From positions 1 through 34,072 of the forward strand of contig JBAWVU010000002.1 in the NCBI GenBank assembly GCA_037147135.1: a stretch of 34,072 nucleotides of DNA. The letters run 5' to 3'. The notes below the pieces were generated by a model. It was not told where the DNA came from. It was given only the letters and a program-made list of their open reading frames with translations, and searched no databases. Numbering within the stretch: position 1 is the stretch's first letter; each line of letters begins with the position of its first letter. Positions 6,724-27,590 of this stretch are shown here, in pieces. A program made the translations under genes and the position numbers. Source of the DNA: Chloroflexota bacterium (lineage in GTDB: Bacteria; Chloroflexota; Limnocylindria; Limnocylindrales; CSP1-4).

Positions 6724-6761
6724 GGCGTGATCTCCTTCGGGACAGCTGCGGGGGGACCGGC

Positions 6762-7652: not shown

Positions 7653-7671
7653 CGCTTCGCCTCCTGGTGGC

Positions 7672-11263: not shown

Positions 11264-11284
11264 CGTTCGTTCTTCCCCCGAGCC

Positions 11285-12172: not shown

Positions 12173-12217
12173 CGGTCCCTCTCGTTGCGATGCGGTTCGT
12201 GGTGATGCGGCGCCGGG

Positions 12218-12895: not shown

Positions 12896-12906
12896 CGTGG
12901 TGTGGC

Positions 12907-14679
12907 TCAGGACCCGATCCCGATGGTCGGGCGGACCGTCTCGGTGCTGAGGATCTCGACCACGCCGGCGTTGCCGTCGACGCGGATGCGCTGGCCGGTG
13001 TGAATCACGTAGGTGCCGATCGACGTGCCGACCACCGCGGGGATCCCGTACTCGCGGGCGAGGACGGCCGGGTGAGCGACGACGTCGCCGGCGTTCGTCA
13101 CGACCGCGGCGATCTTGCCGTAGAGGACCTGCCAGGCCGGGTTCGTCATCTCGCACACCAGGATCTCGCCCTGGCGCACGAGGTCGAACTCGTCCGTGGA
13201 GGTGACGACGCGCGCCACGCCCTCGACGACGCCGGGCGATCCGGCGATACCGGCGAGCTTCCCGTCCTTCAGCTCCCGCGGGCGGTCGAACTTGTCCGGG
13301 AAGCCCCAGAGGTTGAGGTAGGGGAACGCGAGCTGCGTCGCGGTGGCCGTGCCCACCCAGTCCTTGGGCCGGATGCCGTCCGCCGCGGCGCGCTTGGCGC
13401 GCGCGGCCGCGACGATCGCCCGCCCTGTTGTGGCGTCCGGTGCACCGATGAACTCGCGCAGGGCGTTGTAGCGGAAGTAGATGACGTCGTCCGGCTGGTC
13501 CAGAACGCCCATCGCGACGAGCTTCTCGCCGAGGGCGATGAGGACGAGGCGGACGTGGGCGTTGGCGCCCTGGTCGATGTAGAAGTGATGGTCCGGGGTG
13601 AGCGGCGCCATCTTGAGGTTGATCTCGTTGGCGGCCCGCATCTCCTCGAGCGCCTCGCCGGAGAGCCCCTCGAGGATCTCCACCGCGGCGGCATCGATGT
13701 CGGCCTTGAGGGCGGCGACCTTCGTCGGGTAGTCGTAGTCCGACGCGTACTGGTCGCGAACGAGCTGGACGACCGGGACCATGTCCTCGCGGAAGCTCGG
13801 GTAGATGAACTCGTGGCTCCAGACCGCGTGCCAGCCGAACTCCTTCTGGTACGGGACCACTCGCTCGTCGATGAACCGGCGGCCGCGTTCGGTGGCCTGG
13901 AGGGCCGGGACGATGTCCGTCGCGGCCGCGTGGTCGAAGGCCGCGGAGAGGACCGGGTCCGCCTTGACCTCTTCCTTCATCTCCCAGAGGGCCTCGATCT
14001 TGTCCCAGTTGCGGTCGCTGGCCGAGTTCTGCAGCCGGCCGAGGAGGACCTGGTTCACCTCCCCATGGGTCTTCTTCATGACCGCCTGGAGGTTGAGCGT
14101 CGCGCTGAGCTGCGCGAAGTTCAGCATCCAGTGGATCTTCCAGTGGCGGTCGTGCATGTCGATGGCGTCCTCGAGGAGGACCGCCACCTCGGCGAGGCTC
14201 AGCTGGTCCTTCTGGTCCAGCATCGACTCGATGTAGTCGAAGTTGCGCTGCATCTCCGGCACGAACCGGGTGCGCCACCAGTAGGTGAAGTTGGTCCCGT
14301 AGACGGGCAGCACCGCGCCGAGGTACGCACCGATCTTCGCGGCGTAGTCTGCGTCCTCGGGGACGATCGCCTGCGTCTCGTAGTTGTATTCCTGTGTCGC
14401 GACGTGGAGGCCGGCCTCGGCCGGGATCGCGGTCGTGTACAGGTAGCCGTTGATCTTCTTGTAGATCCAGTCCGTCGCGAAGGGCGTGCCGAAGCGGCGG
14501 AACATGTGGTCGCACGAGAGCCACCAGCCGCCGATGTCCTCGTACATCGGGCTGAGCGGCTTGGGGCAGTGCAGGTCGTCGAAGACCCAGAAGAGGAGCT
14601 TCTCGTTCTCCGAGGCCCACTCGATCGGGAACGATCCGTCCCCGAGGAATGCGCCGAGGACTTCTTCCTTGAGCGGCAC
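12907..14679 (-). CDS. Atypical PEP-utilising enzyme: ~470-aa N-terminal domain of unknown function plus C-terminal phospho-His swivel domain, with no ATP-grasp
   Basis: GTG at 14679 with GGAGG 6 nt upstream. 590 aa. The C-terminus is GIAGSPGVVEGVARVV...ILVCEMTNPAW...VVTNAGDVVAHPAVLAREYGIPAVVG, a PEP-utilizers mobile domain with the His at aa 536. The N-terminus (FWVFDDLHCPKPLSPM...) lacks any GGKxxNL/ATP-grasp signature. Confidence 0.75.
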   Translation of the reverse strand: MPLKEEVLGAFLGDGSFPIEWASENEKLLFWVFDDLHCPKPLSPMYEDIGGWWLSCDHMFRRFGTPFATDWIYKKINGYLYTTAIPAEAGLHVATQEYNYETQAIVPEDADYAAKIGAYLGAVLPVYGTNFTYWWRTRFVPEMQRNFDYIESMLDQKDQLSLAEVAVLLEDAIDMHDRHWKIHWMLNFAQLSATLNLQAVMKKTHGEVNQVLLGRLQNSASDRNWDKIEALWEMKEEVKADPVLSAAFDHAAATDIVPALQATERGRRFIDERVVPYQKEFGWHAVWSHEFIYPSFREDMVPVVQLVRDQYASDYDYPTKVAALKADIDAAAVEILEGLSGEALEEMRAANEINLKMAPLTPDHHFYIDQGANAHVRLVLIALGEKLVAMGVLDQPDDVIYFRYNALREFIGAPDATTGRAIVAAARAKRAAADGIRPKDWVGTATATQLAFPYLNLWGFPDKFDRPRELKDGKLAGIAGSPGVVEGVARVVTSTDEFDLVRQGEILVCEMTNPAWQVLYGKIAAVVTNAGDVVAHPAVLAREYGIPAVVGTSIGTYVIHTGQRIRVDGNAGVVEILSTETVRPTIGIGS

Positions 14680-14737
14680 GTGGATCCTCCTGTGCGGTGT
14701 GCGACCCGGGGCGGACTCGCCGGCCCGGGACTGGTCG

Positions 14738-14956
14738 TCAGCCCGCGGCTGCTTGGTGGCGGGTGATCCGCCTGAAGCGCCGCATGTTCTCGGTGGGCGC
14801 GATCTCCGTCGGGAGACCCTCCATGCTCGACGCCCCGAAGAAGCCGGCCACACCCGTCGTGTGGTAGCTGACGTACCGGGCGTCCTCCGGCTCCGCGATC
14901 GGGCCGCCGTCGGCAACCGTCCCGCGCAGGCGCTCCAGCGCCTCGCCTCGGTTCAT
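14738..14956 (-). pseudogene. Remnant of a PEP-hydrolase-like TIM-barrel gene (partner of UPF0261/Tm-1) with a large in-frame internal deletion
   Basis: 72 codons. MNRGEALERLRGTVADG looks like the family N-terminus. It is fused directly to GPIAEPEDARYVSYHTTGVAGFFGASSMEGLPTE...FRRI, which looks like the family C-terminus (HGGPIA.PEDA..V...T.GV.GFyGASSMERLP). Family members are about 275-285 aa from memory. The ATG at 14956 overlaps the UPF0261 stop as ATGA. Confidence 0.55.
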
Positions 14957-16203
14957 GTGGGTCCCCCCGGGCTCACCCCCTTCGCCGCGGCCCACCGGCG
15001 GTACAGGTCGTCGAGCCGCTCCGCCATCGCACGCGCGAACGCTGGATCGTTGATGTCGGTGGCCATCTCGACCACTTCGACCTCGGGCCGGAGGCCGGCC
15101 TTCAGCTCACGGATGAGGGCCGCGTCCGCGACCGGGTCGTGGAACGGGGCACCGGGGACGTCGATCATCGAGACGCCGCCGAGCGGGATGAACACGGCCA
15201 GGGGCCCCGTCGCCGCGTTGAGCTTGCGGGCGATGATCCGCCCCAGCTCCGCGCACTCCGCCTCGGTCGTCCGAACGAGCGTGATCGTCGCGTTGTGGAC
15301 GTAGAGATCGCGGTCCCTGAACTGCGGCGGGACGGTCTCGAGGGGCCCGAAGTCCACCATGTCGAGCGCGCCGAGCGAGACGACCTGCGGGATCCCGAGT
15401 GAGCCGGCCATCTCGAGCCGGTCCGGCCCGGCCGAGTGGATCCCGCCCACGAGCGCGTCCGCGAGCTCGGTCGTCGTGACGTCCAGCGACCCGGTGATGA
15501 AGCCCGCCGCCATGAGCGCTTCCATCGCTCTCCCGCCGGAGCCGGTGGCATGGAAGACGAGGACCTCGTATCCCCTCTCCTCGAGGATGTCCCGGGCCGC
15601 CGTGACGCAGGGGGTCGTGACCCCGAACATCGTGGCCCCGATGAGGGGCTTCGGCGAGAGCTGCGACACGAACGACGCAGCGGCCTTCGCCATCCCGGCG
15701 ATCCCCGCCGCAGCGTTCGTGAGGATCCTCTCCGAGAGGCCGTTGATCCCGGCGATGTCGACGACCGAGTACATCATCGCGATGTCCGTGGTGCCGACGT
15801 ACGGCCGCGTTTCACCGGAGGCCATCGTCGAGACGAGGAGCTTCGGCACGCCCACGGGCAGCGCCTGCATCGCCGCCGAGACGATCGACGAGCCGCCGGA
15901 TCCGCCGAGGCCGAGGATCCCGTCGAGCCGGCCCTCGTCGTGGAGGCGCCTGACGATCACTGTCGCGCCGCGTGCCATCGCCAGGACCGCCGGCCCGCGG
16001 TCGCCGGCCGCCGCGAGGGCCGCCCTGCTTTCCCCCGCGGCCGCGGCGACTTCGTCGGCGCCTATGTCGCCGGGCGAGGGATCGCTGAGCACCCCAGCGT
16101 CGACGAGGATCACGTCGCAGCCGAGCCCACGAACGCGGTCGCGCAGGAACTCGTACTCTGCACCCTTCGTGTCGAGGGTACCGAGCAGCACCACGCTGGC
16201 CAC
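14953..16203 (-). CDS. UPF0261 family (Tm-1 N-terminal-like, putative nucleotide-binding) protein
   Basis: GTG at 16203 with GAGGGG 6 nt upstream. 416 aa. The N-terminus VASVVLLGTLDTKGAEYEFLRDRV...VILVD is characteristic of UPF0261. Confidence 0.75.
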   Translation of the reverse strand: MASVVLLGTLDTKGAEYEFLRDRVRGLGCDVILVDAGVLSDPSPGDIGADEVAAAAGESRAALAAAGDRGPAVLAMARGATVIVRRLHDEGRLDGILGLGGSGGSSIVSAAMQALPVGVPKLLVSTMASGETRPYVGTTDIAMMYSVVDIAGINGLSERILTNAAAGIAGMAKAAASFVSQLSPKPLIGATMFGVTTPCVTAARDILEERGYEVLVFHATGSGGRAMEALMAAGFITGSLDVTTTELADALVGGIHSAGPDRLEMAGSLGIPQVVSLGALDMVDFGPLETVPPQFRDRDLYVHNATITLVRTTEAECAELGRIIARKLNAATGPLAVFIPLGGVSMIDVPGAPFHDPVADAALIRELKAGLRPEVEVVEMATDINDPAFARAMAERLDDLYRRWAAAKGVSPGGPT

Positions 16204-16356
16204 GCGCGACCCCTCAGCCAGCCGTGGTCGGGACGACCGGGAACCCGCCCAGCCGGACCGGGAGGGAGTCCGTCACGATCTTCGTCATTGGCCACCTCTC
16301 GTCGACGAGTGCCCGGCGGTAGCGGAAGGGGCACGGAACTGGCGGAACTGGGACGT

Positions 16357-16377
16357 TCGATAATCGATTGTCGATAA
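16357..16377. promoter_or_regulatory. Operator-like motif copy 1 (TCGATAATCGATTGTCGATAA)
   Basis: AT-rich element in a GC-rich intergenic region. It shares TCGATAATCGATTGT exactly with copy 3. It contains the 8-bp palindrome AATCGATT and reads as three tandem heptamers, TCGATAA TCGATTG TCGATAA. Confidence 0.6.
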
Positions 16378-16405
16378 GACTAGGAACCCGTGCCCGTCGA
16401 GTCAA
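16377..16405 (-). promoter_or_regulatory. Candidate sigma-A-type promoter for the 12-gene minus-strand array
   Basis: On the minus strand: TTGACT (16405-16400), an exact 17-nt spacer, then TAGTCT (16382-16377; TANNNT). The -10 hexamer abuts operator copy 1, the same geometry as at copy 3. Confidence 0.45.
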
Positions 16406-16545
16406 GTGCCGTTGCGTGGCTCGTGACCCCGCCGGCCACCGGCGCCGCGACCCGTGCAGCCCCTCCTCGACCAGTCCGGCCGGAGCTCGCGGCCGGGACG
16501 ACGATCGCGCCCGCGCAGAACGACGGATACCGCTGCAAGTACCGC

Positions 16546-16574
16546 TTGCCTCCAGCGCATCGATAATCGATGAT
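16546..16574 (+). promoter_or_regulatory. Candidate promoter for the transaldolase-mmsA unit
   Basis: TTGCCT (16546-16551), a 17-nt spacer, then GATGAT (16569-16574). The -10 lies inside operator copy 2. The hexamers are weaker than at copies 1 and 3. Confidence 0.3.
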
Positions 16575-16575
16575 A
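16560..16575. promoter_or_regulatory. Operator-like motif copy 2 (TCGATAATCGATGATA)
   Basis: The 16 nt are identical to copy 4. It lies about 140 nt upstream of the transaldolase start. Confidence 0.6.
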
Positions 16576-16716
16576 CGAGGTGCACGGCAGGTGCGCCGTG
16601 CGGTCGACGGCCCGAGCCGTCACGGTCGATCCGGACAAGTGCCAGGAGCGCCGCGACCATCCGGGCACCGACGAGGTCCCCTATCCCATCTCCGGCGAAG
16701 CCGAGAGGATCACCAG

Positions 16717-17811
16717 ATGACCATGAAGCCGACCGAGAGCCCGCTCCTGCGGATGACGCGGGAGACGCCCACCCGCTACTGGAACGACTCCTGCGCCGTC
16801 GACGAGCTCGAGTACGCGGTCGAGCGCGGCGCGACGGGGGCCACGTCCAACCCGAGCATCGTGCTCGATGTCATGAAGAAGGAGAAGGCCTACTACGGAC
16901 CGCGCGTCCGGGAGCTCGCGGCAGAGCACCCCGCATGGACCGAGGTGGAGCTCACCTGGACGATCATCGAGGAGATGGCCGTCCGGGGGGCGGCGGTCCT
17001 CGGGCCGGTGTTCGACCGCGAGCGCGGCCAGATGGGGCGCCTCTCGCTCCAGACCAACCCGGCCAACCACCGCGACCCGGTCCGGATGGTGGAGCAGGGC
17101 GTGCGCTTCGCCGGGCTCGCCCCCAACATCCAGGTGAAGTTCCCGGTCACCGCGTCGGGGCTCGTCGCTATCGAGGAGGCGACCGCGCGCGGCGTCAACA
17201 TCAACGGCACGGTGAGCTTCACGGTGCCGCAGGCTCTCGCCGTCGCCGAGGCGGTCGAGCGCGGCCTCGACCGGTACGCGGCGGCCGGCGGGGACGCCGC
17301 GGCCATGACGCCGATCTGCACGATCATGGTCGGGCGGCTCGACGACTGGATGAAGGTCGTGGTCGATCGCGACAATCTCGCGGTCCACCCGGACGCGCCC
17401 AACTGGGCTGGCATCGCGGCCTTCAAGCGCGCGTACGGCATCTTCCGCGACCGCGGATACCGGTCCCGGCTCCTCGCGGCCGCCTACCGGCACCGCCTGC
17501 ACTGGACGGAGTTCGTCGGGGGGGAAGTGAGCCTCACGATGCCCTACCCGTGGCAGGTGCGGTTCAACGCGAGCGGGATCGTGCCGGAGCCGCGGATGCA
17601 CGTGCCGGTCGACCCCGCGATGATCGACGACCTCCTCGAGCGCATCCCCGATTTCCGGCGAGCGTACGAGCCCGACGGCATGACCCCGGACGAGTTCGAG
17701 TCCTTCGGGGCATCCGCGCGGACGCTCCGCGCGTTCGTCAAGTCGTATCACGATCTCCAGGGCGCGATCCGGGACCTCGTCCTGCCCGACCCCGACGTCC
17801 GGGTCGGTTGA
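16717..17811 (+). CDS. Transaldolase family protein (long ~365-aa type)
   Basis: ATG at 16717 lies 7 nt after GAGAGGA. GATGATSNPSIV (the T(T/S)NPS motif) and NIQVKFPVT (Schiff-base Lys block) are present. 364 aa. Confidence 0.8.
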   Translation: MTMKPTESPLLRMTRETPTRYWNDSCAVDELEYAVERGATGATSNPSIVLDVMKKEKAYYGPRVRELAAEHPAWTEVELTWTIIEEMAVRGAAVLGPVFDRERGQMGRLSLQTNPANHRDPVRMVEQGVRFAGLAPNIQVKFPVTASGLVAIEEATARGVNINGTVSFTVPQALAVAEAVERGLDRYAAAGGDAAAMTPICTIMVGRLDDWMKVVVDRDNLAVHPDAPNWAGIAAFKRAYGIFRDRGYRSRLLAAAYRHRLHWTEFVGGEVSLTMPYPWQVRFNASGIVPEPRMHVPVDPAMIDDLLERIPDFRRAYEPDGMTPDEFESFGASARTLRAFVKSYHDLQGAIRDLVLPDPDVRVG

Positions 17812-17857
17812 GACGGGGCGCGGTACGCTCCCCCCACACGCAAGGAGGCACACGCAC

Positions 17858-19384
17858 GTGACAACCGAGGTCGTGCAGCCCGCGACGCTGCCCATCCTGT
17901 CCCACTGGATCAACGGCCGCCCGGTCGAGGTCCTCCCCGACCAGACGGGGCCCGTCTACAACCCCGCGACGGGCGCGGTCATCGGCCGGGTACCGCGAGG
18001 CGGCTCCGCTGAGGTCGACACGGCTGTCGCAGCGGCGAGCGCGGCGTTCCCGACCTGGCGCGACATGCCGCTCATCGCGCGCAGCCAGGTCTTCTTCGCC
18101 TTCCGCGAGCAGATGTGGCAGCACCGCGAGGAGCTCGCCGCGCTGATCACCCGCGACCACGGGAAGACCTTCCCCGACGCGTTCGCGGAGGTGACCCGCG
18201 GAATCGAGACCATCGAGTTCGCGTGCGGCCTGCCGGTCCATCTCGCCGGCCTGAACACGCCGAACGTCTCCACCGGCGTCGACGCCTTCACGCTCCGCGG
18301 GCCGCTCGGCGTCACTGCCGCCATCACGCCGTTCAACTTCCCGGCGATGGTCCCCCTGTGGATCTACCCCATCGCCATGGCCTGCGGCAACACGATGATC
18401 CTCAAGCCGTCCTCGCACACGCCGGGCGCCACCCAGCTCCAGGCCGAGCTCTGGAAGGCGGCGGGCCTCCCCGACGGCGTCTTCAACGTCGTGTACGGCG
18501 GCCGCGAGGCCGTGCAGGCGATCGTCGAGCACCCGGACATCAAGGCGATCCAGTTCGTCGGGTCCACGGCCGTCGGGCGCTACGTGTACGAGACCGGCAC
18601 GAAGCTCGGCAAGCGGGTCGGGGCCTACACCTCGGCGAAGAACGCGATGATCGTCCTGCCCGACGCGGACATGGAGCTGACGGCCGACGCGGCGGTCGCC
18701 TCGGGGTATGGGTCGGCGGGCGAGCGCTGCATGGCGCAGACGCTCCTCATCGCCGTCGGCGACACCGCCGACAAGCTGCGGCCGCTCATGCTCGAGCGGA
18801 TCGCCAACCTCAAGGTCGGGCCCGGCATGGAGCCCGGCATGGACATGGGGCCGCTCTACTCGGCCGAGCACCGCGATTCGGTCATCCGCTGGATCGACAC
18901 GGGTGTGGCCGAAGGCGCGGAGCTCGTGGTCGACGGTCGGTCCTTCCACCACCCCGACAATCCCGACGGCTACTTCCTCGGCGTCACCCTCTTCGACCAT
19001 GTCACGCCGGAGATGGAGATCTACCGGGAGGAGATCTTCGGGCCGGTCCTCGGCATCGTCCGCGCGAAGACGTACGACGAGGCGCTCGGCCTCATCAACA
19101 GCCACAAGTACGCCAACGGGACCGCGATCTTCACGACCGACGGTGGTGCGGCACGGCGCTTCAAGCTCGAGGTGGAGGTGCCGATGATCGGAGTGAACGT
19201 CCCGATCCCAGTGCCGGCCGGCTACATGTCGTTCGGCGGCGCGAAGGAATCCGCTCTCGGAGACCTCGCGATGCGCGGCGAGGACGGCGTCCGATTCTTC
19301 ACCCAGCAGAAGATGGTCACCGAGCGCTGGCCGGAGCCTGGCCGCCGCGGTGCCCTGAGTCTCGTCTTCCCCGGCAACAGCTGA
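17858..19384 (+). CDS. mmsA: CoA-acylating methylmalonate-semialdehyde dehydrogenase-like aldehyde dehydrogenase
   Basis: GTG at 17858 lies 9 nt after AAGGAGG. 508 aa. ITPFNFPAMVPLW, GSAGERCMA (catalytic Cys) and GVNVPIPVPAGYMSFGG are blocks typical of MmsA/IolA. Confidence 0.8.
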   Translation: MTTEVVQPATLPILSHWINGRPVEVLPDQTGPVYNPATGAVIGRVPRGGSAEVDTAVAAASAAFPTWRDMPLIARSQVFFAFREQMWQHREELAALITRDHGKTFPDAFAEVTRGIETIEFACGLPVHLAGLNTPNVSTGVDAFTLRGPLGVTAAITPFNFPAMVPLWIYPIAMACGNTMILKPSSHTPGATQLQAELWKAAGLPDGVFNVVYGGREAVQAIVEHPDIKAIQFVGSTAVGRYVYETGTKLGKRVGAYTSAKNAMIVLPDADMELTADAAVASGYGSAGERCMAQTLLIAVGDTADKLRPLMLERIANLKVGPGMEPGMDMGPLYSAEHRDSVIRWIDTGVAEGAELVVDGRSFHHPDNPDGYFLGVTLFDHVTPEMEIYREEIFGPVLGIVRAKTYDEALGLINSHKYANGTAIFTTDGGAARRFKLEVEVPMIGVNVPIPVPAGYMSFGGAKESALGDLAMRGEDGVRFFTQQKMVTERWPEPGRRGALSLVFPGNS

Positions 19385-19410
19385 GCCGGGCTCGTTCACC
19401 CGGGCATCGA

Positions 19411-19459
19411 GAGCCCACCGCGACACCGGTCCCCGGCGCCGCGGTGGGCTCTTCTTCAT
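19411..19459 (+). terminator. Rho-independent-like terminator after mmsA
   Basis: A perfect 12-bp stem, GAGCCCACCGCG (19411-19422) pairing with CGCGGTGGGCTC (19440-19451), is followed by TTCTTCATC. Confidence 0.55.
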
Positions 19460-19486
19460 CAGGGGCGCACCGACGGGAGAAGAAGG

Positions 19487-20395
19487 ATGACCACGCCCCT
19501 CGACCTCCGCGTCGCACTCGGCCCGGTCGGCGTGTGGGAGAGCTTCGATGGGATCCCGACCGCGGATGTCCTCCGCTACGCCGGCGACGTCGAGCGGCTC
19601 GGATACGGCGCTCTCTGGGTCAACGAATCGGCCGCGCGCGAGCCGTTCGCGCTCCTCGGCGCGCTGGCCGGCGCGACCTCCCGGCTCACGCTCGGGGTCG
19701 GCATCGCCTCGATCTACGCGCGGGATGCGATGGCGGCGCGCGCGGGGGCCCGCACCGTCGCGGACCTGTCCGACGGGCGGTTCATCATGGGCCTCGGCGT
19801 CTCGCACCGCTCGTCGGTCGAAGTGCGCGGTCACGAGTACACACCACCCCTGGCGGCGATGCGGGCCTACCTCGACGCCTATGACACCGCGCCGTGGGCC
19901 GGGCCGGTCGGCCCCGAGCCGCCGCTCGTCCTGGCGGCGCTCGGGCCGGGGATGCTCCGACTCGCGGCGACCCGCACCGCCGGCGCGTTCCCGTTCCTCG
20001 TCGGCGTCGCCCACGTCGGCGCGGCGCGGCGGACACTCGACGAGGCCGCCGCCGCGGCGGGCCGCGAGGACCGGCCGATCCTCGTCGTCTCCCAGGCGGC
20101 GATCCTCGGGTCGGGCCCCGAGGCGCGCGCGACCGCTCGCGCGATCGTGGGGCGGTACCTCAAGCATCCCAACTACCGCGACAGCCTCGCTCGGGTCGGC
20201 TTCACCGTGGAACAGATCGACGCCCTCGACGACCCGCTCGTGGATTCCCTGGTGGCGATCGGGGACGAAGACGCCCTTCGCGCGCGAGTGGACGCGATGC
20301 TCCACGCCGGCGCCGACCACGTCGCGGTCATCCCCCTCGCGCCCGACGGCAGGCATGCGGACCCTTCGACTACCCGCGCGCTTGCCCCGCGATGA
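19487..20395 (+). CDS. Luciferase-like (LLM class) oxidoreductase, probably F420-dependent
   Basis: 302 aa. ATG follows GGGAGAAGAAGG. GYGALWVNES...LTLGVGIASIY...FIMGLGVSH blocks are typical of LLM-class flavin/F420 oxidoreductases. The cofactor cannot be decided by eye. Confidence 0.7.
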   Translation: MTTPLDLRVALGPVGVWESFDGIPTADVLRYAGDVERLGYGALWVNESAAREPFALLGALAGATSRLTLGVGIASIYARDAMAARAGARTVADLSDGRFIMGLGVSHRSSVEVRGHEYTPPLAAMRAYLDAYDTAPWAGPVGPEPPLVLAALGPGMLRLAATRTAGAFPFLVGVAHVGAARRTLDEAAAAAGREDRPILVVSQAAILGSGPEARATARAIVGRYLKHPNYRDSLARVGFTVEQIDALDDPLVDSLVAIGDEDALRARVDAMLHAGADHVAVIPLAPDGRHADPSTTRALAPR

Positions 20396-20484
20396 GCGGG
20401 CCGACCGGCCGCCGTGCTGCCCGTGGCACATGACGACGGAGGGACGACGGGCAGCCGGATGGCGACGCGGCGCCCGACGACGGG

Positions 20485-20513
20485 TTGACCATCTCGCTTC
20501 GGCGGCGTATCGT
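20485..20513 (+). promoter_or_regulatory. Candidate sigma-A-type promoter for the cupin-transketolase unit
   Basis: TTGACC (20485-20490), an exact 17-nt spacer, then TATCGT (20508-20513; TANNNT). Operator copy 3 begins at the last base of the -10 hexamer. Confidence 0.5.
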
Positions 20514-20529
20514 CGATAATCGATTGTTC
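20513..20529. promoter_or_regulatory. Operator-like motif copy 3 (TCGATAATCGATTGTTC)
   Basis: It shares TCGATAATCGATTGT with copy 1 and lies 54 nt upstream of the cupin start codon. Confidence 0.6.
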
Positions 20530-20582
20530 TGGACGAGAACGGCCCGCCGCACCCGACGGCAGCCGGCCCGGGAGGTACGTGG

Positions 20583-20951
20583 ATGATCAAGCGTGTCGCG
20601 CGCGCCGAGGCGGAGGTCGTGCCGCTGCCCGGCCGGACCTGGTATTCGTACTTCGGGCCGCACAACAGCGGCGCGAAGAACGTCTCGCTCGGCGTGTCGA
20701 TCTTCCCCGCGGGCTCGAGGCCGTCGGGGCACGTGCACCCCGCCGAGGAGGAGACCATCTACTGCGCCGCCGGGCGGGGCCGCATCGTCACGCCCGACGA
20801 GATCGCCGAGGTCGAGCCGGGCGTCGTCGTCCACGTCTCCCCCGGGACCTTCCACGCCACCGAGGCCGACGGGCCCGAGCCGCTCGAGCTCATCTGCGTG
20901 TTCTCGCCTCCGGTGGTCTCCGGGTCGTACGAGAAGAAGGGCGGGTCATGA
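20583..20951 (+). CDS. Cupin domain protein (possible sugar or sugar-phosphate isomerase)
   Basis: 122 aa. GGGAGG lies 7 nt upstream. GHVHPAEEETIYCAAGRG...VHVSPGTFHA fits the two-motif cupin_2 pattern (G(x)5HxH...E, then PxGxxHxxxN-like). Confidence 0.75.
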   Translation: MIKRVARAEAEVVPLPGRTWYSYFGPHNSGAKNVSLGVSIFPAGSRPSGHVHPAEEETIYCAAGRGRIVTPDEIAEVEPGVVVHVSPGTFHATEADGPEPLELICVFSPPVVSGSYEKKGGS

Positions 20952-21847
20952 GCGAGCCTTCCGCGACCGCCGGCATCGATGCCGTCGAGATCGCCCGCCT
21001 CGAAGAGGTCGCGCGGCGGATCCGCGTCGAGGTCATCCGAGCCGTGAACCACGCGAGGGCCGGCCACCTCGGCGGCCCACTGTCCGCGGCAGACATCCTC
21101 GCCGTCCTCTACTTCCACGTCATGCGCATCCGCCCGGACGAGCCGCGATGGCCCGACCGCGACCGGTTCGTCCTCAGCAAGGGCCATTCATCGATCGGCC
21201 TCTACGCAGCGATGGCGCTCCGCGGGTACTTCCCCGTCGAGGAGCTCTCGACGTTCGACGCCGCGCACTCCCGGCTCCAGGGCCACCCCGACATGACGCG
21301 GCTGCCGGGCCTCGACATGTCGAGCGGGTCGCTCGGGATGGGGATCTCGGCGGCGATGGGGATGGCCCTCGGCGCGCGCCTCACCGGGCGTGACAGCCGT
21401 GCGTACGTGATGCTCGGCGACGGCGAGTGCCAGGAGGGCGAGGTCTGGGAGGCGGCCATGTCGGCCGAGCGGTACGGCCTGGACAACCTCATCGCGATTG
21501 TCGACCACAACAGGCTCCAGCAATACGGCTGGCCCGGAGAGGGCCCGGACGGTCGCACGCCGCCCCAGATCCCCGGCGAGCTGGTCGCCAAGTGGACCGC
21601 CTTCGGATGGCGCGTGCTCGAGGTGGACGGCCACGACATCGCCGCGGTGGTCTCCACGCTGCAGGAGGCCGCGCGCGGCGACGGCCGCCCGGTCGTCGTC
21701 ATCGCCCACACCGTCAAGGGCAAGGGCGTCTCGTACATGGAGGGCCACTACTTCTGGCACACGCGCGCGCTCAAGCCGGACGAGTTCGCGATCGCGATGG
21801 CGGACCTTGGCGAGCCGGTCCCAGCGACCGAAGGAGACGGGCGATGA
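20948..21847 (+). CDS. Transketolase N-terminal (thiamine diphosphate-binding) subunit
   Basis: 299 aa. AGHLGGPLSAADIL, SKGHSSIGLYA and MLGDGECQEGEVWEA (the GDG-x-E ThDP motif) are present. The ATG overlaps the cupin stop as ATGA. Confidence 0.9.
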   Translation: MSEPSATAGIDAVEIARLEEVARRIRVEVIRAVNHARAGHLGGPLSAADILAVLYFHVMRIRPDEPRWPDRDRFVLSKGHSSIGLYAAMALRGYFPVEELSTFDAAHSRLQGHPDMTRLPGLDMSSGSLGMGISAAMGMALGARLTGRDSRAYVMLGDGECQEGEVWEAAMSAERYGLDNLIAIVDHNRLQQYGWPGEGPDGRTPPQIPGELVAKWTAFGWRVLEVDGHDIAAVVSTLQEAARGDGRPVVVIAHTVKGKGVSYMEGHYFWHTRALKPDEFAIAMADLGEPVPATEGDGR

Positions 21848-22791
21848 CGCTGCCGATGGGCCGCCCCATGAGGGAGATCTTCGGCGAGACGGTGGCGACG
21901 CTCGCGGGCGAGGACCCGCGGATCGTCATGCTCGATGGCGACGTCGGGAGCTCGACGCGGGCGGACATCTTCGAGAAGGCGCACCCGGATCGATACCTCC
22001 AGATGGGGATCGCCGAGCAGAACATGCTCGGCGTCGCCGCCGGGCTCGCGACGATGGGCCTGATCCCGTTCATCAGCACGTTCGTGTCGTTCGCCGTCGT
22101 CCGGCCGCTCGACCAGATCCGGGTCCTCATCGCGCAGACGGGACTCCCGGTGAAGATCACCGCCGGCTATGCGGGGCTCTTCACCGGACAGACGGGGATG
22201 AGCCACATCATCGTGGACGACCTCTCGATCATGCGGGCGATGCCCGGCATGGTGACCGTCGCCCCGGCCGATGACGTCGAGGCCGCACAGGTGCTGCGCT
22301 GGGCAGCGGGCTACGACGGCCCGGTCTACGTCCGACTCGTCCGCGACGCGACGCAGCGCCTCTTCGACGACTCGTACCGGTTCGAGCTCGGGAAGGCCGT
22401 CGTCGTTCGTGAAGGCGCCGATGTGACGCTCGTGAGCACGGGGACCCAGACACCGCGCGTGGTGGACGCCGCCGAGATGCTCGCGACGGACGGGATCGAC
22501 GCGCACGTCCTCCACGTCCCGACCATCAAGCCGCTCGATACGGAGGCGATCGTCGCCGCCGCGGAGCGGACCGGCCGGGTCATCACGGTCGAGGAGCACA
22601 CCATCATCGGCGGGCTCGGGGGCGCCGTCGCGGAGACGCTCGGGGAGCACCGTCCGACCCGCGTCTCGCGGATCGGCCTGCAGGACCTCTACCCGGAGTC
22701 GGGACCGAACGAGGCCCTCCTCGACATCTACGGGCTGTCGGCCGCGAGGGTTGCGGAGCAGGTTCGCGGCATCCTGCGCGCCGACGGCTGA
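21844..22791 (+). CDS. Transketolase C-terminal (pyrimidine-binding) subunit
   Basis: 315 aa. RYLQMGIAEQNMLGVAAGLA, FISTFVSF and VTVEEHTIIGGLG are present. The ATG overlaps the preceding stop as ATGA. Confidence 0.9.
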   Translation: MTLPMGRPMREIFGETVATLAGEDPRIVMLDGDVGSSTRADIFEKAHPDRYLQMGIAEQNMLGVAAGLATMGLIPFISTFVSFAVVRPLDQIRVLIAQTGLPVKITAGYAGLFTGQTGMSHIIVDDLSIMRAMPGMVTVAPADDVEAAQVLRWAAGYDGPVYVRLVRDATQRLFDDSYRFELGKAVVVREGADVTLVSTGTQTPRVVDAAEMLATDGIDAHVLHVPTIKPLDTEAIVAAAERTGRVITVEEHTIIGGLGGAVAETLGEHRPTRVSRIGLQDLYPESGPNEALLDIYGLSAARVAEQVRGILRADG

Positions 22792-22804
22792 CGGGCGCCG
22801 ATCG
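22743..22804 (+). repeat. Direct repeat copy 1 (last 49 nt of the transketolase C-subunit gene including its stop, plus 13 nt downstream)
   Basis: The 62 nt align without gaps to 29174-29235, with 3 mismatches at 22747, 22752 and 22781. Confidence 0.85.
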
Positions 22805-22835
22805 TCACGGAGCCACGCCTCCACCGTCACCGCGG

Positions 22836-22865
22836 GGCGGGAGAGCCCGGCCGGGCTCTCCCGCC
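22836..22865. terminator. Bidirectional hairpin between convergent genes
   Basis: A perfect 13-bp stem, GGCGGGAGAGCCC / GGGCTCTCCCGCC, with a 4-nt GGCC loop. It sits between the transketolase stop (22791) and the DMT stop (22940). There is no U-tract. Confidence 0.5.
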
Positions 22866-22939
22866 TGGGCCGGATGCGCCGCAAGCCGCGGGCCAAGGCC
22901 GGCCGGGCCCACCACGTCCGCCCCCGCTGAGAACGGGCG

Positions 22940-23890
22940 TCAGCCCACTTCCACCACGACGCGTTCGGGCGAGACCCGGGGTGGCAGCTGCACGACCACC
23001 ACGGCGACGAGGATCGCCGCCCCGCCGACAAGCTCGAGCACGGTGAGCTGCTGGCCGAGGGCCAGCGCCGCGACGACGACCGCGACGACCGGCTCCGTCA
23101 GCAAGGCCACGGCCGCCCGGGTGGCGCCGATGAGGCGCACGCCACCGATGATCCAGACCTTGGGCAGCGCGCCGATGGTCCCGGCGCACAGGATCGCGGC
23201 CCAGGCGACAGGCGACGCGAGCCACTCGCCCGCCGCGCCCGCTCCACCGATCACGAGCGCGGCCGTGCCCGAGATCGCCAGCCCGCCGACGAGGACGACC
23301 GCGGTGGCCTGGACGCCGGGCACATCGTCGAACCCACCGCGGACCGCCACCAGGTAGACCGCGTGGCAGGTCGCGGCGATGCCGGCCAGCGCCATGCCGA
23401 CAGCGGTCGCATGGGCCTCGGGACCGAGCTGGCTGCCGAGCACGAGCGCGAGCCCCGCACAGGCGACGGCGAGCGCGAGGATCCGGACGGGCGTGAGCCG
23501 CTCCCGGCCGAGGGCGGCGGATATCAGCGCCACGATCACCGGGTAGCTGTAGAAGATGACCATGACGAGCCCGACGGCCATCGCCCCGAAGGCGAAGAAC
23601 AGGACGAGGTTCATCAGGCCGTTGACGGCCACGGCCAGCGCGAGCATCGCCCGCTGCCGGGACGGCAGCCGGGCGAGGCTGACGGACGGCTGGCGGCGGG
23701 AGAGGACGAGCGCACCCAGGATCGTGGCGCCGATCCCCGCCCGGAGGGCACTGAACGTCGCGGGTTCGACGCCCTGTCCGTACGCAAGGGCCGCGACCGG
23801 CCCGAGGGTTCCCATCGCTGCTGCCGCCGCGAGCACCTTGAGGAGACCGCCGACCGGCCGGTCTGCCGTCGCGCCCACGTCTATCGCCAT
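22940..23890 (-). CDS. EamA/DMT-family transporter
   Basis: 316 aa and very hydrophobic, with about ten predicted transmembrane segments in two halves, as in EamA duplications. ATG at 23890 lies 4 nt after GGAGGA. An upstream GTG at 23914 is possible. Confidence 0.75.
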   Translation of the reverse strand: MAIDVGATADRPVGGLLKVLAAAAAMGTLGPVAALAYGQGVEPATFSALRAGIGATILGALVLSRRQPSVSLARLPSRQRAMLALAVAVNGLMNLVLFFAFGAMAVGLVMVIFYSYPVIVALISAALGRERLTPVRILALAVACAGLALVLGSQLGPEAHATAVGMALAGIAATCHAVYLVAVRGGFDDVPGVQATAVVLVGGLAISGTAALVIGGAGAAGEWLASPVAWAAILCAGTIGALPKVWIIGGVRLIGATRAAVALLTEPVVAVVVAALALGQQLTVLELVGGAAILVAVVVVQLPPRVSPERVVVEVG

Positions 23891-23937
23891 GGTGTCCTCC
23901 GGCCCTGTCCCCACCCGTCGGGGCCATCGATCATCGC

Positions 23938-23967
23938 TTGCATTGCCCGGTGCGCGTCATGTACCAT
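23938..23967 (+). promoter_or_regulatory. Candidate promoter for the ABC transporter operon
   Basis: TTGCAT (23938-23943), an 18-nt spacer, then TACCAT (23962-23967). Operator copy 4 starts 3 nt downstream. Confidence 0.35.
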
Positions 23968-23969
23968 CC

Positions 23970-23985
23970 TCGATAATCGATGATA
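23970..23985. promoter_or_regulatory. Operator-like motif copy 4 (TCGATAATCGATGATA)
   Basis: Identical to copy 2 over 16 nt. It lies in the divergent region between the DMT transporter and the ABC operon. Confidence 0.6.
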
Positions 23986-24232: not shown

Positions 24233-25111
24233 ATGGACCTGGACTTCATCACCCAGTCCCTCGTCATCGGTCTCACCGAGAACGCGCCCCTCGTCCTCGC
24301 CGCGCTCGGCTTCGCCCTGCTGTACAAGCTCACCGGCCTCATCAACGTGGCCTACTCGGAGACCATCACGCTCGGGGCCTACTTCGGGATGTGGCTCAAC
24401 ACGACGTACGGCCTCGACTTCTACACCGTCCTGATCCCCACCGGGCTGCTGGCGGGCGTCCTCAGCGTCGCCACGTATCTCCTCATCTTCCGGCCGGCGA
24501 AGCGACGCGGCGTCGGCGGGCTGGAGATGATCATCATCTCCTTCGGGCTGTCGATCTTCCTGCGGCACGGCCTGCAGTTCGTCTTCGGCTACCCGGTGCG
24601 GTTCTTCGACGTCCCACCACCCGACACGATCATGGTGCTCGGCGTCGGCGTGACGTCGTTCCGCCTGCTCGCCGTCGTGAGCGTCGCGGTGCTCTCCCTG
24701 CTGATCTGGGCCTTCATCCAGCGATCCAGGTACGGCCTCCAGATCCGGGCGCTTGCCAACGACGAGAACCTGGCGAAGGTGAGCGGGATCCGGCCGCTCG
24801 CCGTCACGACGCTGATCTGGTTCATCGCCGGCGTCGCCGGCGGGCTGGCCGGCGCGTTCTACGGCGTCGGGTCGAACGTCTCGCCGCTGCTCGGCTGGCG
24901 ACAGTTCCTCCTCATCCTGATGGTGGCCCTCGTGGGAGGCAGCTGGGGGCTCAGCGGCGTCATCGTCGTCGGGGTGGTCACGAGCGTGGCGCTGGCCGCC
25001 ATGGCGCTCCAGTTCGACCAGGTCATGTACGCGCAGCTGGTGCTGATCGTCGCCTTCGTCGTCGTCCTGAAGGTGCGCGGCAGGCGGCTCACCGAGACGG
25101 CGAAGGTGTAG
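24233..25111 (+). CDS. Branched-chain-amino-acid-type ABC transporter permease (LivH-like)
   Basis: 292 aa, polytopic. The N-terminus MDLDFITQSLVIGLTENAPLVLAALGFALLYKLTGLINVAYSE is typical of the LivH family. Confidence 0.85.
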   Translation: MDLDFITQSLVIGLTENAPLVLAALGFALLYKLTGLINVAYSETITLGAYFGMWLNTTYGLDFYTVLIPTGLLAGVLSVATYLLIFRPAKRRGVGGLEMIIISFGLSIFLRHGLQFVFGYPVRFFDVPPPDTIMVLGVGVTSFRLLAVVSVAVLSLLIWAFIQRSRYGLQIRALANDENLAKVSGIRPLAVTTLIWFIAGVAGGLAGAFYGVGSNVSPLLGWRQFLLILMVALVGGSWGLSGVIVVGVVTSVALAAMALQFDQVMYAQLVLIVAFVVVLKVRGRRLTETAKV

Positions 25112-25115
25112 GGAC

Positions 25116-26054
25116 ATGCTCGACGCGTTTCTGATCACGGGGCTGTTCCAGGTCGTGATGGTGATCGGCCTCGCGCTGCTGCTCCACCTCCAGCTGGGGC
25201 TCGCCCGGATCGCGAACTTCGGCGTCGTCGGGTTCTGGGGCATCGGGATGTACACCTTCGGAGTGCTGTACGTCCAGGTCGACTGGCCGTTCGGGGAGCC
25301 ATTCCAGTTCCTCGTCTGCGCCGCCGCCGCGAGCCTCGTCGCCGGCGCGGCCGGGCTCCTCGTCGGATGGCTCATCGCCGCCCCCGACACCGACGGCGTG
25401 CTCGTAGGCACGCTCGGGTTCGCCGCTGCCGTCCAGATCCTGGCGACCACCCAGGACGACCTCACCGGTGGCGCGCGCGGCATGGGAGGGCTCAGCTTCC
25501 CCTTCGACATCGGCCACGTCAAGGACAACGAGTCCCTGTGGCTGGTGATCATGACCGCCGTCGTCGTCGCGATATTCTTCTACGCCTGGCGGGTCCACCG
25601 TTCGCCCTACGGGCGCCTCCTGATCGCGATGGGCGGCAACGAGCCGCTGGCCCGCAGCCTGGGGAAGTCGACGTTTCGGGCCAAACTCTGGCTGTTCGCC
25701 GTCGGCTCGGCAGGTATGGGATTGATCGGTGCGATGAACGGGGTCATGGCGCGCTACCTCGATGTCGGCAGCCTCGGGGTCGGCATCACCCTCGCCGCGA
25801 TGGTGGGGTTGATCCTGGGCGGCACGGCACGCGTGTGGGGAGCGGTGGTGGGCGTCATCCTCACGGTGGGGCTCTTCGACATCGTGGTCCAGTCCTACCT
25901 GCCGCTCCCCAAGGAGTGGTACAGCCAGGCGCTCCCCGTGCTGAGAGAGGCCGCGTTCGGCCTGACGCTGATGATCGTCCTGCTGTTCCGGCCGATGGGC
26001 CTGCTCGGCGACATGCGGCGCGACAAGCTGATGAGCAAGATGCATGGTCGCTGA
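25116..26054 (+). CDS. Branched-chain-amino-acid-type ABC transporter permease (LivM-like)
   Basis: 312 aa, polytopic. LGLARIANFGVVGFWGIGMY resembles the LivM block (G..slg.aaF.giGAY). Confidence 0.85.
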   Translation: MLDAFLITGLFQVVMVIGLALLLHLQLGLARIANFGVVGFWGIGMYTFGVLYVQVDWPFGEPFQFLVCAAAASLVAGAAGLLVGWLIAAPDTDGVLVGTLGFAAAVQILATTQDDLTGGARGMGGLSFPFDIGHVKDNESLWLVIMTAVVVAIFFYAWRVHRSPYGRLLIAMGGNEPLARSLGKSTFRAKLWLFAVGSAGMGLIGAMNGVMARYLDVGSLGVGITLAAMVGLILGGTARVWGAVVGVILTVGLFDIVVQSYLPLPKEWYSQALPVLREAAFGLTLMIVLLFRPMGLLGDMRRDKLMSKMHGR

Positions 26055-26838
26055 CGTCGTCGACGCCGTCGCCCTGACCCGTCCCCGGATCCGTGTCCAG
26101 GGGGCCGTCAAGAGCTTCTCCGGCCGCGTCGTCGTGGACATCGACGACGCCATCCTGGGCGACCGGCCGATCCAGGGCCTCATCGGACCCAACGGCGCCG
26201 GCAAGACGACGTTGATGCGCATGATCATGCACTCGACCCCGCTCGACCGCGGCAGGATCTCCTTCCTGCCCGAGGGTGGAGGCGAAGTGGTGCTCTCGAG
26301 CCTGCCCGCCCACCGGATGGCGAGCCACGGCGTGGTGAAGTCCAACCAGGTGATCATGGACTTCGACAAGCTCACCATCTGGGATTCGGTCCTGCTCGCC
26401 GTGGCCGAGGCCCGGTACGAGCAGCCCCAGCGGATCTTCAGCGAGCGGACGGTCTTCAAGCAGCACGAGGACGAGATCCGGCACTACCTGGACTACTTCG
26501 GATTCGCCGACCCAACTGCCTTCGCGATGTCGGCCGGCGAGAAGAAACTCCTCGACATCGTGCGCTGCCTGCTCCTGCGGCCGACGTTCCTCCTGCTGGA
26601 CGAGCCGACGGCCGGCCTTCCCGATGAGCTGACCGAGAAGGTCATGAAGGTGGTCAGGGACCTGGCCGGCGCCGGGACCTCGGTGGTGATCGTGGAGCAC
26701 GACCTCAACGTCATCTGGAACCTCTGCGAGGAGGTCCTGTTCATGGCCGAGGGCAAGGTCATCCTGAGAGGCGACCCACAGTCGATCCGCGCGAACAGGA
26801 CCGTCGTCGAGAAGTACCTCGGAGAGGGCCATGTCTGA
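26044..26838 (+). CDS. ABC transporter ATP-binding protein (LivG-like)
   Basis: Walker A GPNGAGKTT, Walker B LLLDEPTAG and H-loop VEHDL are present. The signature motif reads MSAGEKKLL. The gene overlaps the preceding permease by 11 nt. Confidence 0.85.
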   Translation: MVADVVDAVALTRPRIRVQGAVKSFSGRVVVDIDDAILGDRPIQGLIGPNGAGKTTLMRMIMHSTPLDRGRISFLPEGGGEVVLSSLPAHRMASHGVVKSNQVIMDFDKLTIWDSVLLAVAEARYEQPQRIFSERTVFKQHEDEIRHYLDYFGFADPTAFAMSAGEKKLLDIVRCLLLRPTFLLLDEPTAGLPDELTEKVMKVVRDLAGAGTSVVIVEHDLNVIWNLCEEVLFMAEGKVILRGDPQSIRANRTVVEKYLGEGHV

Positions 26839-27547
26839 GACGGCCGGATCCGTCAGCCTCGAGGTCGAAGGCCTGCGCAGCGGCTACCACGGGGTCACCG
26901 TCCTCAAAGGCCTCGACTTCACCGTCGGCGACGAGATCTTCGCCGTGCTGGGAGCCAACGGTGCGGGGAAGACCACGCTGCTGGCGACCCTGGCGCGCCT
27001 GATCCCGCTCATGGCCGGGACGATCAGGTTCCAGGGCGAGGACGTGTCCAGGTTGCCTCCGTACGAGACGGCCGGCCGGGGGATCGGCTACGTGCCCCAG
27101 GAGAAGGGCGTCTTCGCCGACCTCACCGTCCTCGAGAACCTGGCCGTGGGGGGGATGATCGGCACGCGTTCGCGAGGCGAGCGGATGGCCGAGGTGCTCG
27201 AGCTGTTCCCCGATCTGCGGGCCCTCCAGGCACAGAAGGCGGGGACCCTCAGCGGCGGCGAGTCACGCATGGTGGCCTGCGGACGGGCCCTCATGCAGGA
27301 CCCCAGGGTGCTGCTCCTCGACGAGCCCACGGCCGGCCTCTCCCCGCTGTACGTCGACATGTTCTTCGACAAGATCACGGAGATCCACGAGACCAGGGGC
27401 GTAGCCATCGTCCTCGCCGAGCAGAACGCCACCAAGGCGCTCCAGGTCGCCGACCGGGTGATGGTGCTGAGTCTCGGCGAGTCGTTCGCCGTGATGGACG
27501 CCGCCCATCTGACCACCCAGCAGCTCAAGGAGGGATACAGGATCTGA
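26831..27547 (+). CDS. ABC transporter ATP-binding protein (LivF-like)
   Basis: Walker A GANGAGKTT, signature LSGGESRMVA and Walker B LLLDEPTAG are present. GGAGAGGG lies upstream. The gene overlaps the preceding stop by 8 nt. Confidence 0.9.
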   Translation: MSETAGSVSLEVEGLRSGYHGVTVLKGLDFTVGDEIFAVLGANGAGKTTLLATLARLIPLMAGTIRFQGEDVSRLPPYETAGRGIGYVPQEKGVFADLTVLENLAVGGMIGTRSRGERMAEVLELFPDLRALQAQKAGTLSGGESRMVACGRALMQDPRVLLLDEPTAGLSPLYVDMFFDKITEIHETRGVAIVLAEQNATKALQVADRVMVLSLGESFAVMDAAHLTTQQLKEGYRI

Positions 27548-27590
27548 CGGCCCACGCTTCTGGGCACGACACCGAAGGAGGAGACACGCA

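Follow-up and report, generated by a model that had tools for sequence, protein, structure and literature searches.

Organization of the locus

The stretch of DNA analysed here, hereafter the window, comprises 34,072 nucleotides of contig JBAWVU010000002.1 from a Chloroflexota bacterium (assembly GCA_037147135.1). It carries a cluster of catabolic and transport genes in five transcription units, and a short AT-rich box, TCGATAATCGAT, recurs in the DNA in front of them. The units are a 12-gene operon led by a UPF0261 gene, a transaldolase-family unit, a cupin-transketolase unit, an EamA transporter gene and a Liv-type ATP-binding cassette (ABC) importer. Two paralogous regulators of the GntR family, GntR1 and GntR2, are encoded in the same window and are the candidate binders of the box. 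The features are collected in Table 1.

Table 1. Transcription units, candidate regulators, boxes and predicted promoters in the window.
Feature	Position	Strand	Description
Unit 1, 12-gene operon	2608–16203	-	UPF0261, PEP_hydrolase remnant, Rph-like PEP-utilizer, GntR1, 295-amino acid (aa) protein, Mo-hydroxylase M/S/L subunits, cyclase-family hydrolase, zinc-type alcohol dehydrogenase (Zn-ADH), PPDK-like protein, SDR
Unit 2	16717–20395	+	transaldolase-family protein, aldehyde dehydrogenase, F420-type LLM oxidoreductase
Unit 3	20583–22791	+	cupin and split transketolase (N and C subunits)
Unit 4	22940–23890	-	EamA/DMT transporter
Unit 5	24233–29030	+	Liv-type ABC importer: two permeases, two ATPases, binding protein
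GntR1, candidate binder 1	12218–12895	-	fourth gene of the UPF0261 operon; GntR winged helix-turn-helix (wHTH) and FCD domains (PF00392, PF07729)
GntR2, candidate binder 2	29253–29960	-	GntR wHTH and FCD domains (PF00392, PF07729); paralogue of GntR1
O1, composite operator TCGATAATCGATTGTCGA	16357–16374		three TCGA cores 7 bp apart; copy 1 is 16357–16368; second box 16364–16375 is ATCGACAATCGA on the minus strand
O2, operator box TCGATAATCGAT	16560–16571	+	transaldolase promoter
O3, operator box	20513–20524	+	cupin-transketolase promoter
O4, operator box	23970–23981	+	Liv-type ABC importer promoter
O5, degenerate box GCGATGATCGAT	23926–23937	-	about 36 nt 5′ of the EamA start; directly adjoins the ABC importer -35
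UPF0261 operon promoter (predicted)	16377–16405	-	-35 TTGACT 16400–16405, 17-nt spacer, -10 TAGTCT 16377–16382
Transaldolase promoter (predicted)	16546–16574	+	-35 TTGCCT 16546–16551, 17-nt spacer, -10 GATGAT 16569–16574
Cupin-transketolase promoter with O3 (promoter scan)	20485–20524	+	-35 TTGACC 20485–20490, 17-nt spacer, -10 TATCGT 20508–20513
Liv-type ABC importer promoter with O4	23938–23981	+	-35 TTGCAT 23938–23943, 18-nt spacer, -10 TACCAT 23962–23967, CC, box

Exact copies of the box occur four times, at 16357, 16560, 20513 and 23970, while 0.0002 copies are expected in 34 kb from the base composition (70% GC). Allowing up to two mismatches raises the number of matches in the window to 15, against a mean of 1.43 over 100 dinucleotide-preserving shuffles, of which none (0/100) reached 15. 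On a gene map combining GC3 frame analysis, Pfam matches and the depositor's gene calls, all four exact copies are non-coding. The first two fall within the 513-bp divergent gap (16204–16716) between the UPF0261 gene (14953–16203, minus strand) and the transaldolase-family gene (16717–17811, plus strand). The third lies 59 nt 5′ of the cupin ATG (20583), and the fourth is found between EamA (start 23890, minus strand) and the first permease gene of the importer (start 24233).

A preliminary description, made from the sequence of the window alone, had confined the motif to intergenic DNA at these same places, had divided it into two subtypes by the bases that follow it (TGT for copies 1 and 3, GATA for copies 2 and 4) and had considered its recurrence very unlikely by chance; the gene map and the counts bear out each of these statements. 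Its number of four is correct for exact copies, but two weaker boxes had been overlooked (16364–16375 and 23926–23937), so that the window holds six in all. The first of the weaker boxes overlaps copy 1, and together they form the 18-bp near-palindrome of O1 (16357–16374). The second, O5, has a conserved counterpart in a related locus (L008), where GCGATAATCGAT lies 55 nt from EamA.

Position of the box in the promoters

The box stands close to a predicted promoter in every case. O1 starts 2 nt downstream of the UPF0261 -10 hexamer (TAGTCT-TA-TCGACAATCGA) and covers the expected start site, and in the cupin promoter the box shares its first base with the final T of the -10. O2 is placed differently, occupying the spacer of the transaldolase promoter and overlapping its -10. 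Thus the box follows the -10 by 0–2 nt at three promoters and sits in the spacer at the transaldolase promoter, and its position relative to the -35 is not fixed. It had been proposed earlier that copies 1 and 3 begin exactly at the last base of a -10 hexamer, 17 nt from TTGACT or TTGACC. This is exact for copy 3; for copy 1 the promoter is as described (TTGACT, 17 nt, TAGTCT), but the box begins 2 nt after the -10.

Orthologous upstream regions were aligned with the box as anchor. For the cupin promoter (11 loci) conservation is confined to TTGACc, TAT..T and TCGATAATCGATT.T, and the 17–18-nt spacer varies. The UPF0261 promoter (more than 20 loci) reads cTTGACt/g-N17/18-TAnnnT-(t)a-TCGryAATCGATTATCGA towards UPF0261, with variable spacer and flanks. 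At the importer promoter (5 loci) TAnnATCC-TCGATAATCGAT[G/C]AT is conserved, within the full layout TTGCAT-N18-TAnnAT-CC-box. At the transaldolase promoter (18 loci) cTTGCs-N17-GAT[G/T]AT is conserved together with TCGATnATCGAT; in this case the box takes up the spacer and extends into the -10. All four promoters therefore retain -35, -10 and box, while spacers and flanks are free to vary, and no second conserved palindrome is visible in these four alignments. A box lying over the -10, the start site or the spacer has the geometry of a repressor site, and the repressor geometry proposed in the preliminary description is strengthened by the conservation of -35 and -10 beside the box.

The predicted leaders of the UPF0261 and transaldolase transcripts are long (about 165 nt, 16204–16370, and about 135 nt, 16581–16716), and neither has an Rfam match; indeed no Rfam match was obtained anywhere in the window. 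Among orthologues the start codon lies anywhere between about 35 and several hundred nt from the box, and hence no conserved leader element is evident. A role of the box at the RNA level was considered and rejected. It lacks an Rfam match, a 5-bp stem with a 1-nt loop cannot fold, and the transaldolase box lies upstream of the -10 and hence is not transcribed.

Conservation in Chloroflexota

Relatives were collected by a scan with the UPF0261 protein, keeping one genome per species, which gave 80 loci; the region inspected was ±10 kb around each cluster. The closest UPF0261 loci (69–86% identity) are all Chloroflexota metagenome-assembled genomes (MAGs) labelled 'uncultured Chloroflexia' or 'Candidatus Limnocylindrales', and about 27 of them keep the same gene sets in varying gene order. 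Of the first 83 loci, 28 contain the exact 11-mer core; those UPF0261 loci among the 83 that come from Streptomyces, haloarchaea and proteobacteria and are without the cluster do not have it. A literature search with the 11-mer and its reverse complement as strings returned primers and CpG oligonucleotides only.

The preliminary description had named frequent occurrence inside coding regions, and absence from orthologous loci, as observations that would speak against the motif. The exact 12-mer occurs 43 times in 490 kb, in 27 Chloroflexota loci (the window's own contig, L001, and 26 others), and 0 of the 43 copies lie inside genes. A crude open reading frame (ORF) mask did flag seven, all of them in 5′ over-extensions upstream of the homologous gene start. 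Where matches with one mismatch do fall within genes, they represent the GC-richer TCGATGATCGAC of the UPF0261 coding sequence. Across orthologous loci the 12-mer appears at the same promoters, namely those of the UPF0261 operon, transaldolase, cupin-transketolase, the Liv-type ABC importer and EamA, and the same operons carry boxes despite rearranged gene order between genomes. This fits the single regulon suggested earlier. A 12-mer conserved at orthologous promoters within unconserved flanks also points to an operator, and not to chance or a repeat element.

A symmetrised count matrix was made from 145 distinct non-coding sites. Its core, up to ±5 from the centre (TCGAT-W-ATCGA), is 94–97% conserved, A/T at ±6 reaches 72%, and T/A and A/T at ±8 and ±9 reach 56–59%, giving the symmetrised consensus ATnATCGAT-W-ATCGATnAT. 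As judged from these sequences, the site is built of ATCGAT hexamers at a 7-bp period: two full hexamers with half-hexamer flanks in O2–O4, three in O1, and up to four elsewhere.

Several related genomes show variations on this arrangement. In L007, L013, L015, L017, L020, L032, L063 and L070 (about 4800–10000) the O1-type operator and UPF0261 are separated by a second, inserted Liv-type ABC transporter. This transporter is 26–40% identical to that of the window and is found in about half of the related genomes, where the operon begins with the importer. In L083 an exact box, TCGATAATCGATGATAG at 14710, stands between GntR1 and the 295-aa gene, i.e. inside the single operon of the window, which hints at an internal promoter under regulation in L083.

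The leftmost genes of the window (1–2601, plus strand) encode a short-chain dehydrogenase/reductase (SDR), a metallo-beta-lactamase (MBL) and a Zn-ADH, and their promoter lies outside the window. In L060 the SDR and MBL orthologues stand in line after the cupin-transketolase genes, behind the boxes of that promoter. On a metagenome contig (L202, 2735) TATTCT and TCGATAATCGATGAT stand in front of the SDR and MBL orthologues (81% and 80% identity). These genes probably belong to the same regulon.

Occurrence in another phylum and in metagenomes

Solirubrobacterales (Actinomycetota) have a GntR orthologue, 58% identical, with the same helix SQAPVREALR. It is encoded in a related operon, which comprises genes for an Rph-like enzyme, Mo-hydroxylase, FAA hydrolase, SDR, GntR, cyclases, PPDK_N and ADH. 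The promoter of this operon carries GATCATCGATTATCTATGATC, which has the same core, or near variants of it in 5 of the 5 loci examined.

A scan of metagenomes with TCGATAATCGATNAT gave at least 120 matches, most of them low-GC chance matches. Among the matches listed, 22 have a GC content of at least 0.6, and 9 of these 22 (including L202) adjoin orthologues of the window's cluster genes. Two further high-GC matches are ATCGAT arrays located 33–90 nt in front of unrelated FCD-GntR genes. The arrays have the 7-bp period, with three hexamers in L133 (1565–1590) and four in L101 (11884–11912); the regulators encoded behind them resemble those of the window weakly and stand in other gene contexts (SBP_bac_3/L-PSP in L133). 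Similar arrays are seen in L205, L180, L127, L168 and L192, contigs on which no regulator is visible. HutC-type GntR genes beside matches in L150 and L121 were set aside as evidence: L121 has a degenerate HTH, and L150 (about 960–990) has, in the intergenic region of its HutC-type gene, a chance-looking box together with a palindrome of its own, CATGTCTTATGTCTTATATAAGATACATG. The latter agrees with the SdhR motif quoted in PMC4494728.

The candidate regulators

GntR1 and GntR2 are 68% identical, and their recognition helix, GTSQAPVREALR, is identical and is invariant in all orthologues of both paralogues. GntR1 is present in all complete orthologous clusters, and no regulator other than GntR1 and GntR2 is conserved in the cluster. 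Among solved structures GntR1 comes closest to 7xp0 (E = 3e-28), and all of its Protein Data Bank (PDB) matches are GntR/FCD proteins. Homologue searches with GntR1 and with its L034 orthologue, considering the best 120 matches each, returned near-orthologues throughout (at least 70% identity).

The placement of boxes relative to these genes follows a common pattern: the operator lies in the promoter of the regulator's own operon or of adjacent operons. For gntR1, which is inside the O1-controlled operon, this is so by way of O1. GntR2 orthologues show it in several forms. In L004, L009, L010 and L011 the gene stands behind a C_GCAxxG_C_C gene that is itself preceded by the variant TCTATAATCGAT; in L090 it lies directly behind TTGACC-N17-TAGAGT-cat-CATCGATTATCGA; and in L181 it lies behind TTGATTATCGATTATAGA. 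The Solirubrobacterales operon is arranged likewise. In the window GntR2 may belong to a CCG-FeS-HAD-DAO-GntR2 operon, the promoter of which is past the window end; no homologues of this operon occur in the loci collected, and a look-up of its CCG protein gave no record. The two FadR-type GntR paralogues had been put forward as candidate binders in the preliminary description. Identical helices, boxes before both genes in some genomes, and a helix and core box kept together in another phylum make this the best-supported assignment, short of proof. The motif class would accordingly belong to FCD-type GntR proteins, and the boxes of the window to GntR1 and/or GntR2.

The 295-aa protein was also considered as the regulator and rejected: it has no Pfam or NCBIfam match, and no counterpart is evident among the called genes of the box-bearing Solirubrobacterales loci. 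In three MAGs GntR1 appears to be split by a frameshift (L005 13912–14548, L024 13930–14584, L070 13918–14572); these are probably assembly errors rather than pseudogenes.

Gene content of the island

The gene content suggests an inducible island for uptake plus catabolism, as read from family assignments. No member of the regulon, both GntR proteins included, has an equivalog-level NCBIfam name. The set common to Chloroflexota and Solirubrobacterales consists of the Rph-like enzyme, Mo-hydroxylase, SDR, GntR, cyclase, PPDK_N and ADH.

A 72-aa ORF between UPF0261 and the Rph-like gene (14738–14956, minus strand) matches only the last 50 positions of Pfam PEP_hydrolase (217–267 of 267). A full-length partner of 277 aa occurs in L034 (11191–12024). 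The short form is kept at 70–80% identity across the Chloroflexota loci, and this conservation marks it as a retained remnant or a micro-protein. Some enzyme types are duplicated in the island. The two Zn-ADHs (1546–2601, plus strand, and 5665–6723, minus strand) have near-identical termini, and several orthologous ADH genes are closer to ADH1 than to ADH2. There are likewise two PEP-utilizer phosphotransfer proteins (3455–5608 and 12907–14679, minus strand), one PPDK-like and one Rph-like.

Discussion

The element described here is a transcription-factor operator of a multi-operon regulon, most likely read by FCD-type GntR repressors. We propose that the boxes are operators of a local repressor system, in which dimers of FCD-type GntR proteins bind ATCGAT hexamers and are released by an effector, and we put the probability of this reading at roughly 0.75. 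The operator would consist of two to three ATCGAT hexamers 7 bp apart, with the core TCGAT-A-ATCGA(T). A dimer of GntR1 and/or GntR2 would place one winged-helix domain on each hexamer and so cover two of them. Bound at O1–O5, the repressor would block RNA polymerase at five sigma-70-type promoters, silencing the UPF0261 operon (gntR1 included), the transaldolase unit, the cupin-transketolase unit, the ABC importer and the EamA transporter. A substrate or intermediate of the pathway may then bind the FCD domain, the repressor would be released, and uptake and catabolism would be switched on together. As the two paralogues share the DNA-reading head and differ in their sensor domains, they may bring two signals to the same operators or form heterodimers. 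The control so envisaged is ordinary gene regulation with an unusual site sequence, and no new regulatory principle is involved.

Several observations weigh against this assignment of the boxes to GntR1 and GntR2. In the window itself no box is found in the 169 nt directly upstream of GntR2. The box is devoid of the GT/AC dinucleotides that are the hallmark of the family and has GA/TC in their place. The replacement of Arg by Gln in the recognition helix, discussed below, is not generally correlated with the motif, as Leu takes this place in the L101 regulator. Of the high-GC metagenome matches listed, about half adjoin unrelated genes, with no GntR gene visible on the contig. Finally, the region inspected extended ±10 kb around each cluster, and what was found there is compatible with a wider, global regulon.

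Some of these points are in line with a different explanation, that the operators are real but are bound by another transcription factor encoded elsewhere, for instance a broader catabolic or global regulator, while the GntR paralogues recognise other sites. The missing GT/AC signature of GntR operators (PMC4494728) and the high-GC matches at unrelated promoters on contigs with no FCD-GntR gene, such as L192 (DAO/MADH), L168, L194 and L205, can both be cited for it. However, GntR/FCD is the sole regulator common to the Chloroflexota and Solirubrobacterales clusters (the LysR gene of L084 is without a Chloroflexota counterpart), the helix and the box are retained jointly across phyla, and independent FCD-GntR genes lie directly behind ATCGAT arrays. 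Nor is another conserved palindrome visible in these promoters. We therefore regard another factor as unlikely.

Could the 12-mer itself be a promoter element, with GATAAT serving as a -10 or as the site of an alternative sigma factor? GATAAT does have A at position 2 and T at position 6, a variant in L004 reads TATAAT, and at the transaldolase promoter, and probably at that of EamA, the best -10 shares bases with the box. Nevertheless, the varying position of the box relative to the conserved -35, right after the -10 at three promoters and in the spacer at one, argues against a core promoter element. A separate TAnnnT is conserved 17–18 nt from TTGAC at three promoters, while GATAAT stands 24 nt from the cupin -35, and the box, a palindrome, is found in either orientation and also in arrays. 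A promoter element is highly improbable on these grounds.

The GntR proteins might also act on the boxes as activators or dual regulators instead of repressors. Some FadR-family proteins act both ways, and E. coli FadR activates fabA; in addition, O5 lies at or upstream of the importer -35. At four promoters, however, the box lies across the -10, the spacer or the start site, which is incompatible with classical activation, so that repression is preferred and activation appears very unlikely. The possibility of a non-regulatory origin, as a short dispersed repeat (REP- or MITE-like, or a recombination site) or as a cluster arisen by chance, for which the AT-rich palindromic character in a 70% GC genome might speak, is practically negligible and effectively refuted by the phylogenetic footprints: the unit measures no more than 12–18 nt between unrelated flanks, with no terminal structure and no Rfam match, it always lies in 5′ promoter regions with conserved -35 and -10 and never at 3′ ends or in genes, and it is conserved across two phyla.

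The GntR repressor model can be carried further. The hexamer array may be the code of an unrecognised FCD-GntR sub-clade that has dispensed with the canonical Arg–G contacts. With a self-complementary half-site, the registers of bound dimers could overlap, or dimers could polymerise along two to four hexamers. The paralogues would then convey two signals to one set of operators, and regulator, operators and a phosphotransfer-dependent catabolic pathway of UPF0261, Rph-like and PPDK-like enzymes, Mo-hydroxylase and cyclases might have moved together between Chloroflexota and Actinomycetota. Taken as a whole, this extended picture is possible but doubtful.

The repressor model offers a testable regulon for abundant uncultured soil Chloroflexota, with five promoters, about 30 genes, two candidate repressors and one operator. 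It groups enzymes that have remained unnamed (UPF0261, the Rph-like and PPDK-like phosphotransferases, Mo-hydroxylase, the cyclases, the split transketolase and the transaldolase-family protein) as one putative inducible pathway with its own importer, and so provides a handle on the substrate. It would also add a clear example of a FadR-type operator that does not have the GT/AC signature, and suggests residue changes that may accompany the loss of this signature, namely Thr and Gln for R35 and R45 of FadR.

Comparison with known FadR-type systems

The preliminary description had remarked that the motif does not look like GntR half-sites. This is correct insofar as GT/AC is replaced by GA/TC, but the geometry of a FadR-type site is retained. 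The operator consensus of the FadR subfamily is TKGT-N3-ACMA (PMC4494728). When the box TcGAtaaTCgA is aligned with it, the odd centre, G/C at ±3 and T/A at ±5 agree. A match to TKGT-N(2-3)-ACMA fails at two positions, as the box has A/T instead of T/A at ±2 and C/G instead of K/M at ±4. Accepted members of the subfamily also fall outside TKGT-N-ACMA, such as BioR with TTATMKATAA and NanR with tandem repeats (PMC4494728); the consensus is thus typical rather than strictly defining. Extra half-sites are found 7–12 nt from many GntR palindromes (PMC4494728).

On the protein side, GntR1, GntR2 and the Solirubrobacterales orthologue have Thr and Gln at the positions aligned with R35 and R45 of E. 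coli FadR. In the FadR–DNA structures these two arginines contact G bases. Their replacement by Thr and Gln is consistent with an altered DNA specificity. That this Gln of the recognition helix determines the motif is a weakened proposal, since the L133 regulator has Gln there and that of L101 has Leu.

With the FadR subfamily at large (FadR, PdhR, LldR, GlcC, DgoR) the present system shares candidate binders of the GntR wHTH and FCD type, an AT-rich odd-centred palindrome, a location at the promoters of own and neighbouring catabolic or transport operons, and extra half-sites about 7 nt off, as in many members of the family. It departs from them in TCGAT-A-ATCGA with GA/TC for GT/AC, in Thr and Gln at FadR R35 and R45, and in the missing NCBIfam equivalog. 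BioR, a FadR-subfamily regulator of alphaproteobacteria, resembles it in having an operator with no GT/AC and AT-rich arms around a C/G centre, and TTATCGATAA-like strings are found inside O1, a similarity by eye only. The BioR site, however, is a single 10-bp even-centred palindrome and not an array of hexamers at 7 bp, and its biotin regulon and its taxa are unrelated.

The likeness to NanR concerns the repeats. NanR reads tandem GGTATA hexamers (PDB 6on4/6wfq/6wg7) with a FadR-type protein that matches GntR1 weakly in sequence (E = 5e-6), and arrays of three to four hexamers occur here in O1, L133 and L101. NanR-like proteins bind three or more tandem hexamers cooperatively as several dimers; in the window, O1 has three TCGA cores, but O2–O4 have two full hexamers with half-hexamer flanks. 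Unlike GGTATA, the hexamer ATCGAT is self-complementary, so that its arrays are direct repeats and palindromes at once. The closest structure to GntR1 is that of the PmiR/PrpR-type GntR protein of Pseudomonas aeruginosa (7xp0/7xp1; PMC9728974), which differs from the present regulators in its effector (2-methylisocitrate), in its regulon and in the Arg kept in its recognition helix (ISRGPLRE). It is an FCD-type protein that represses a catabolic operon and requires two neighbouring protected sites for binding, in which it resembles the repressors proposed here.

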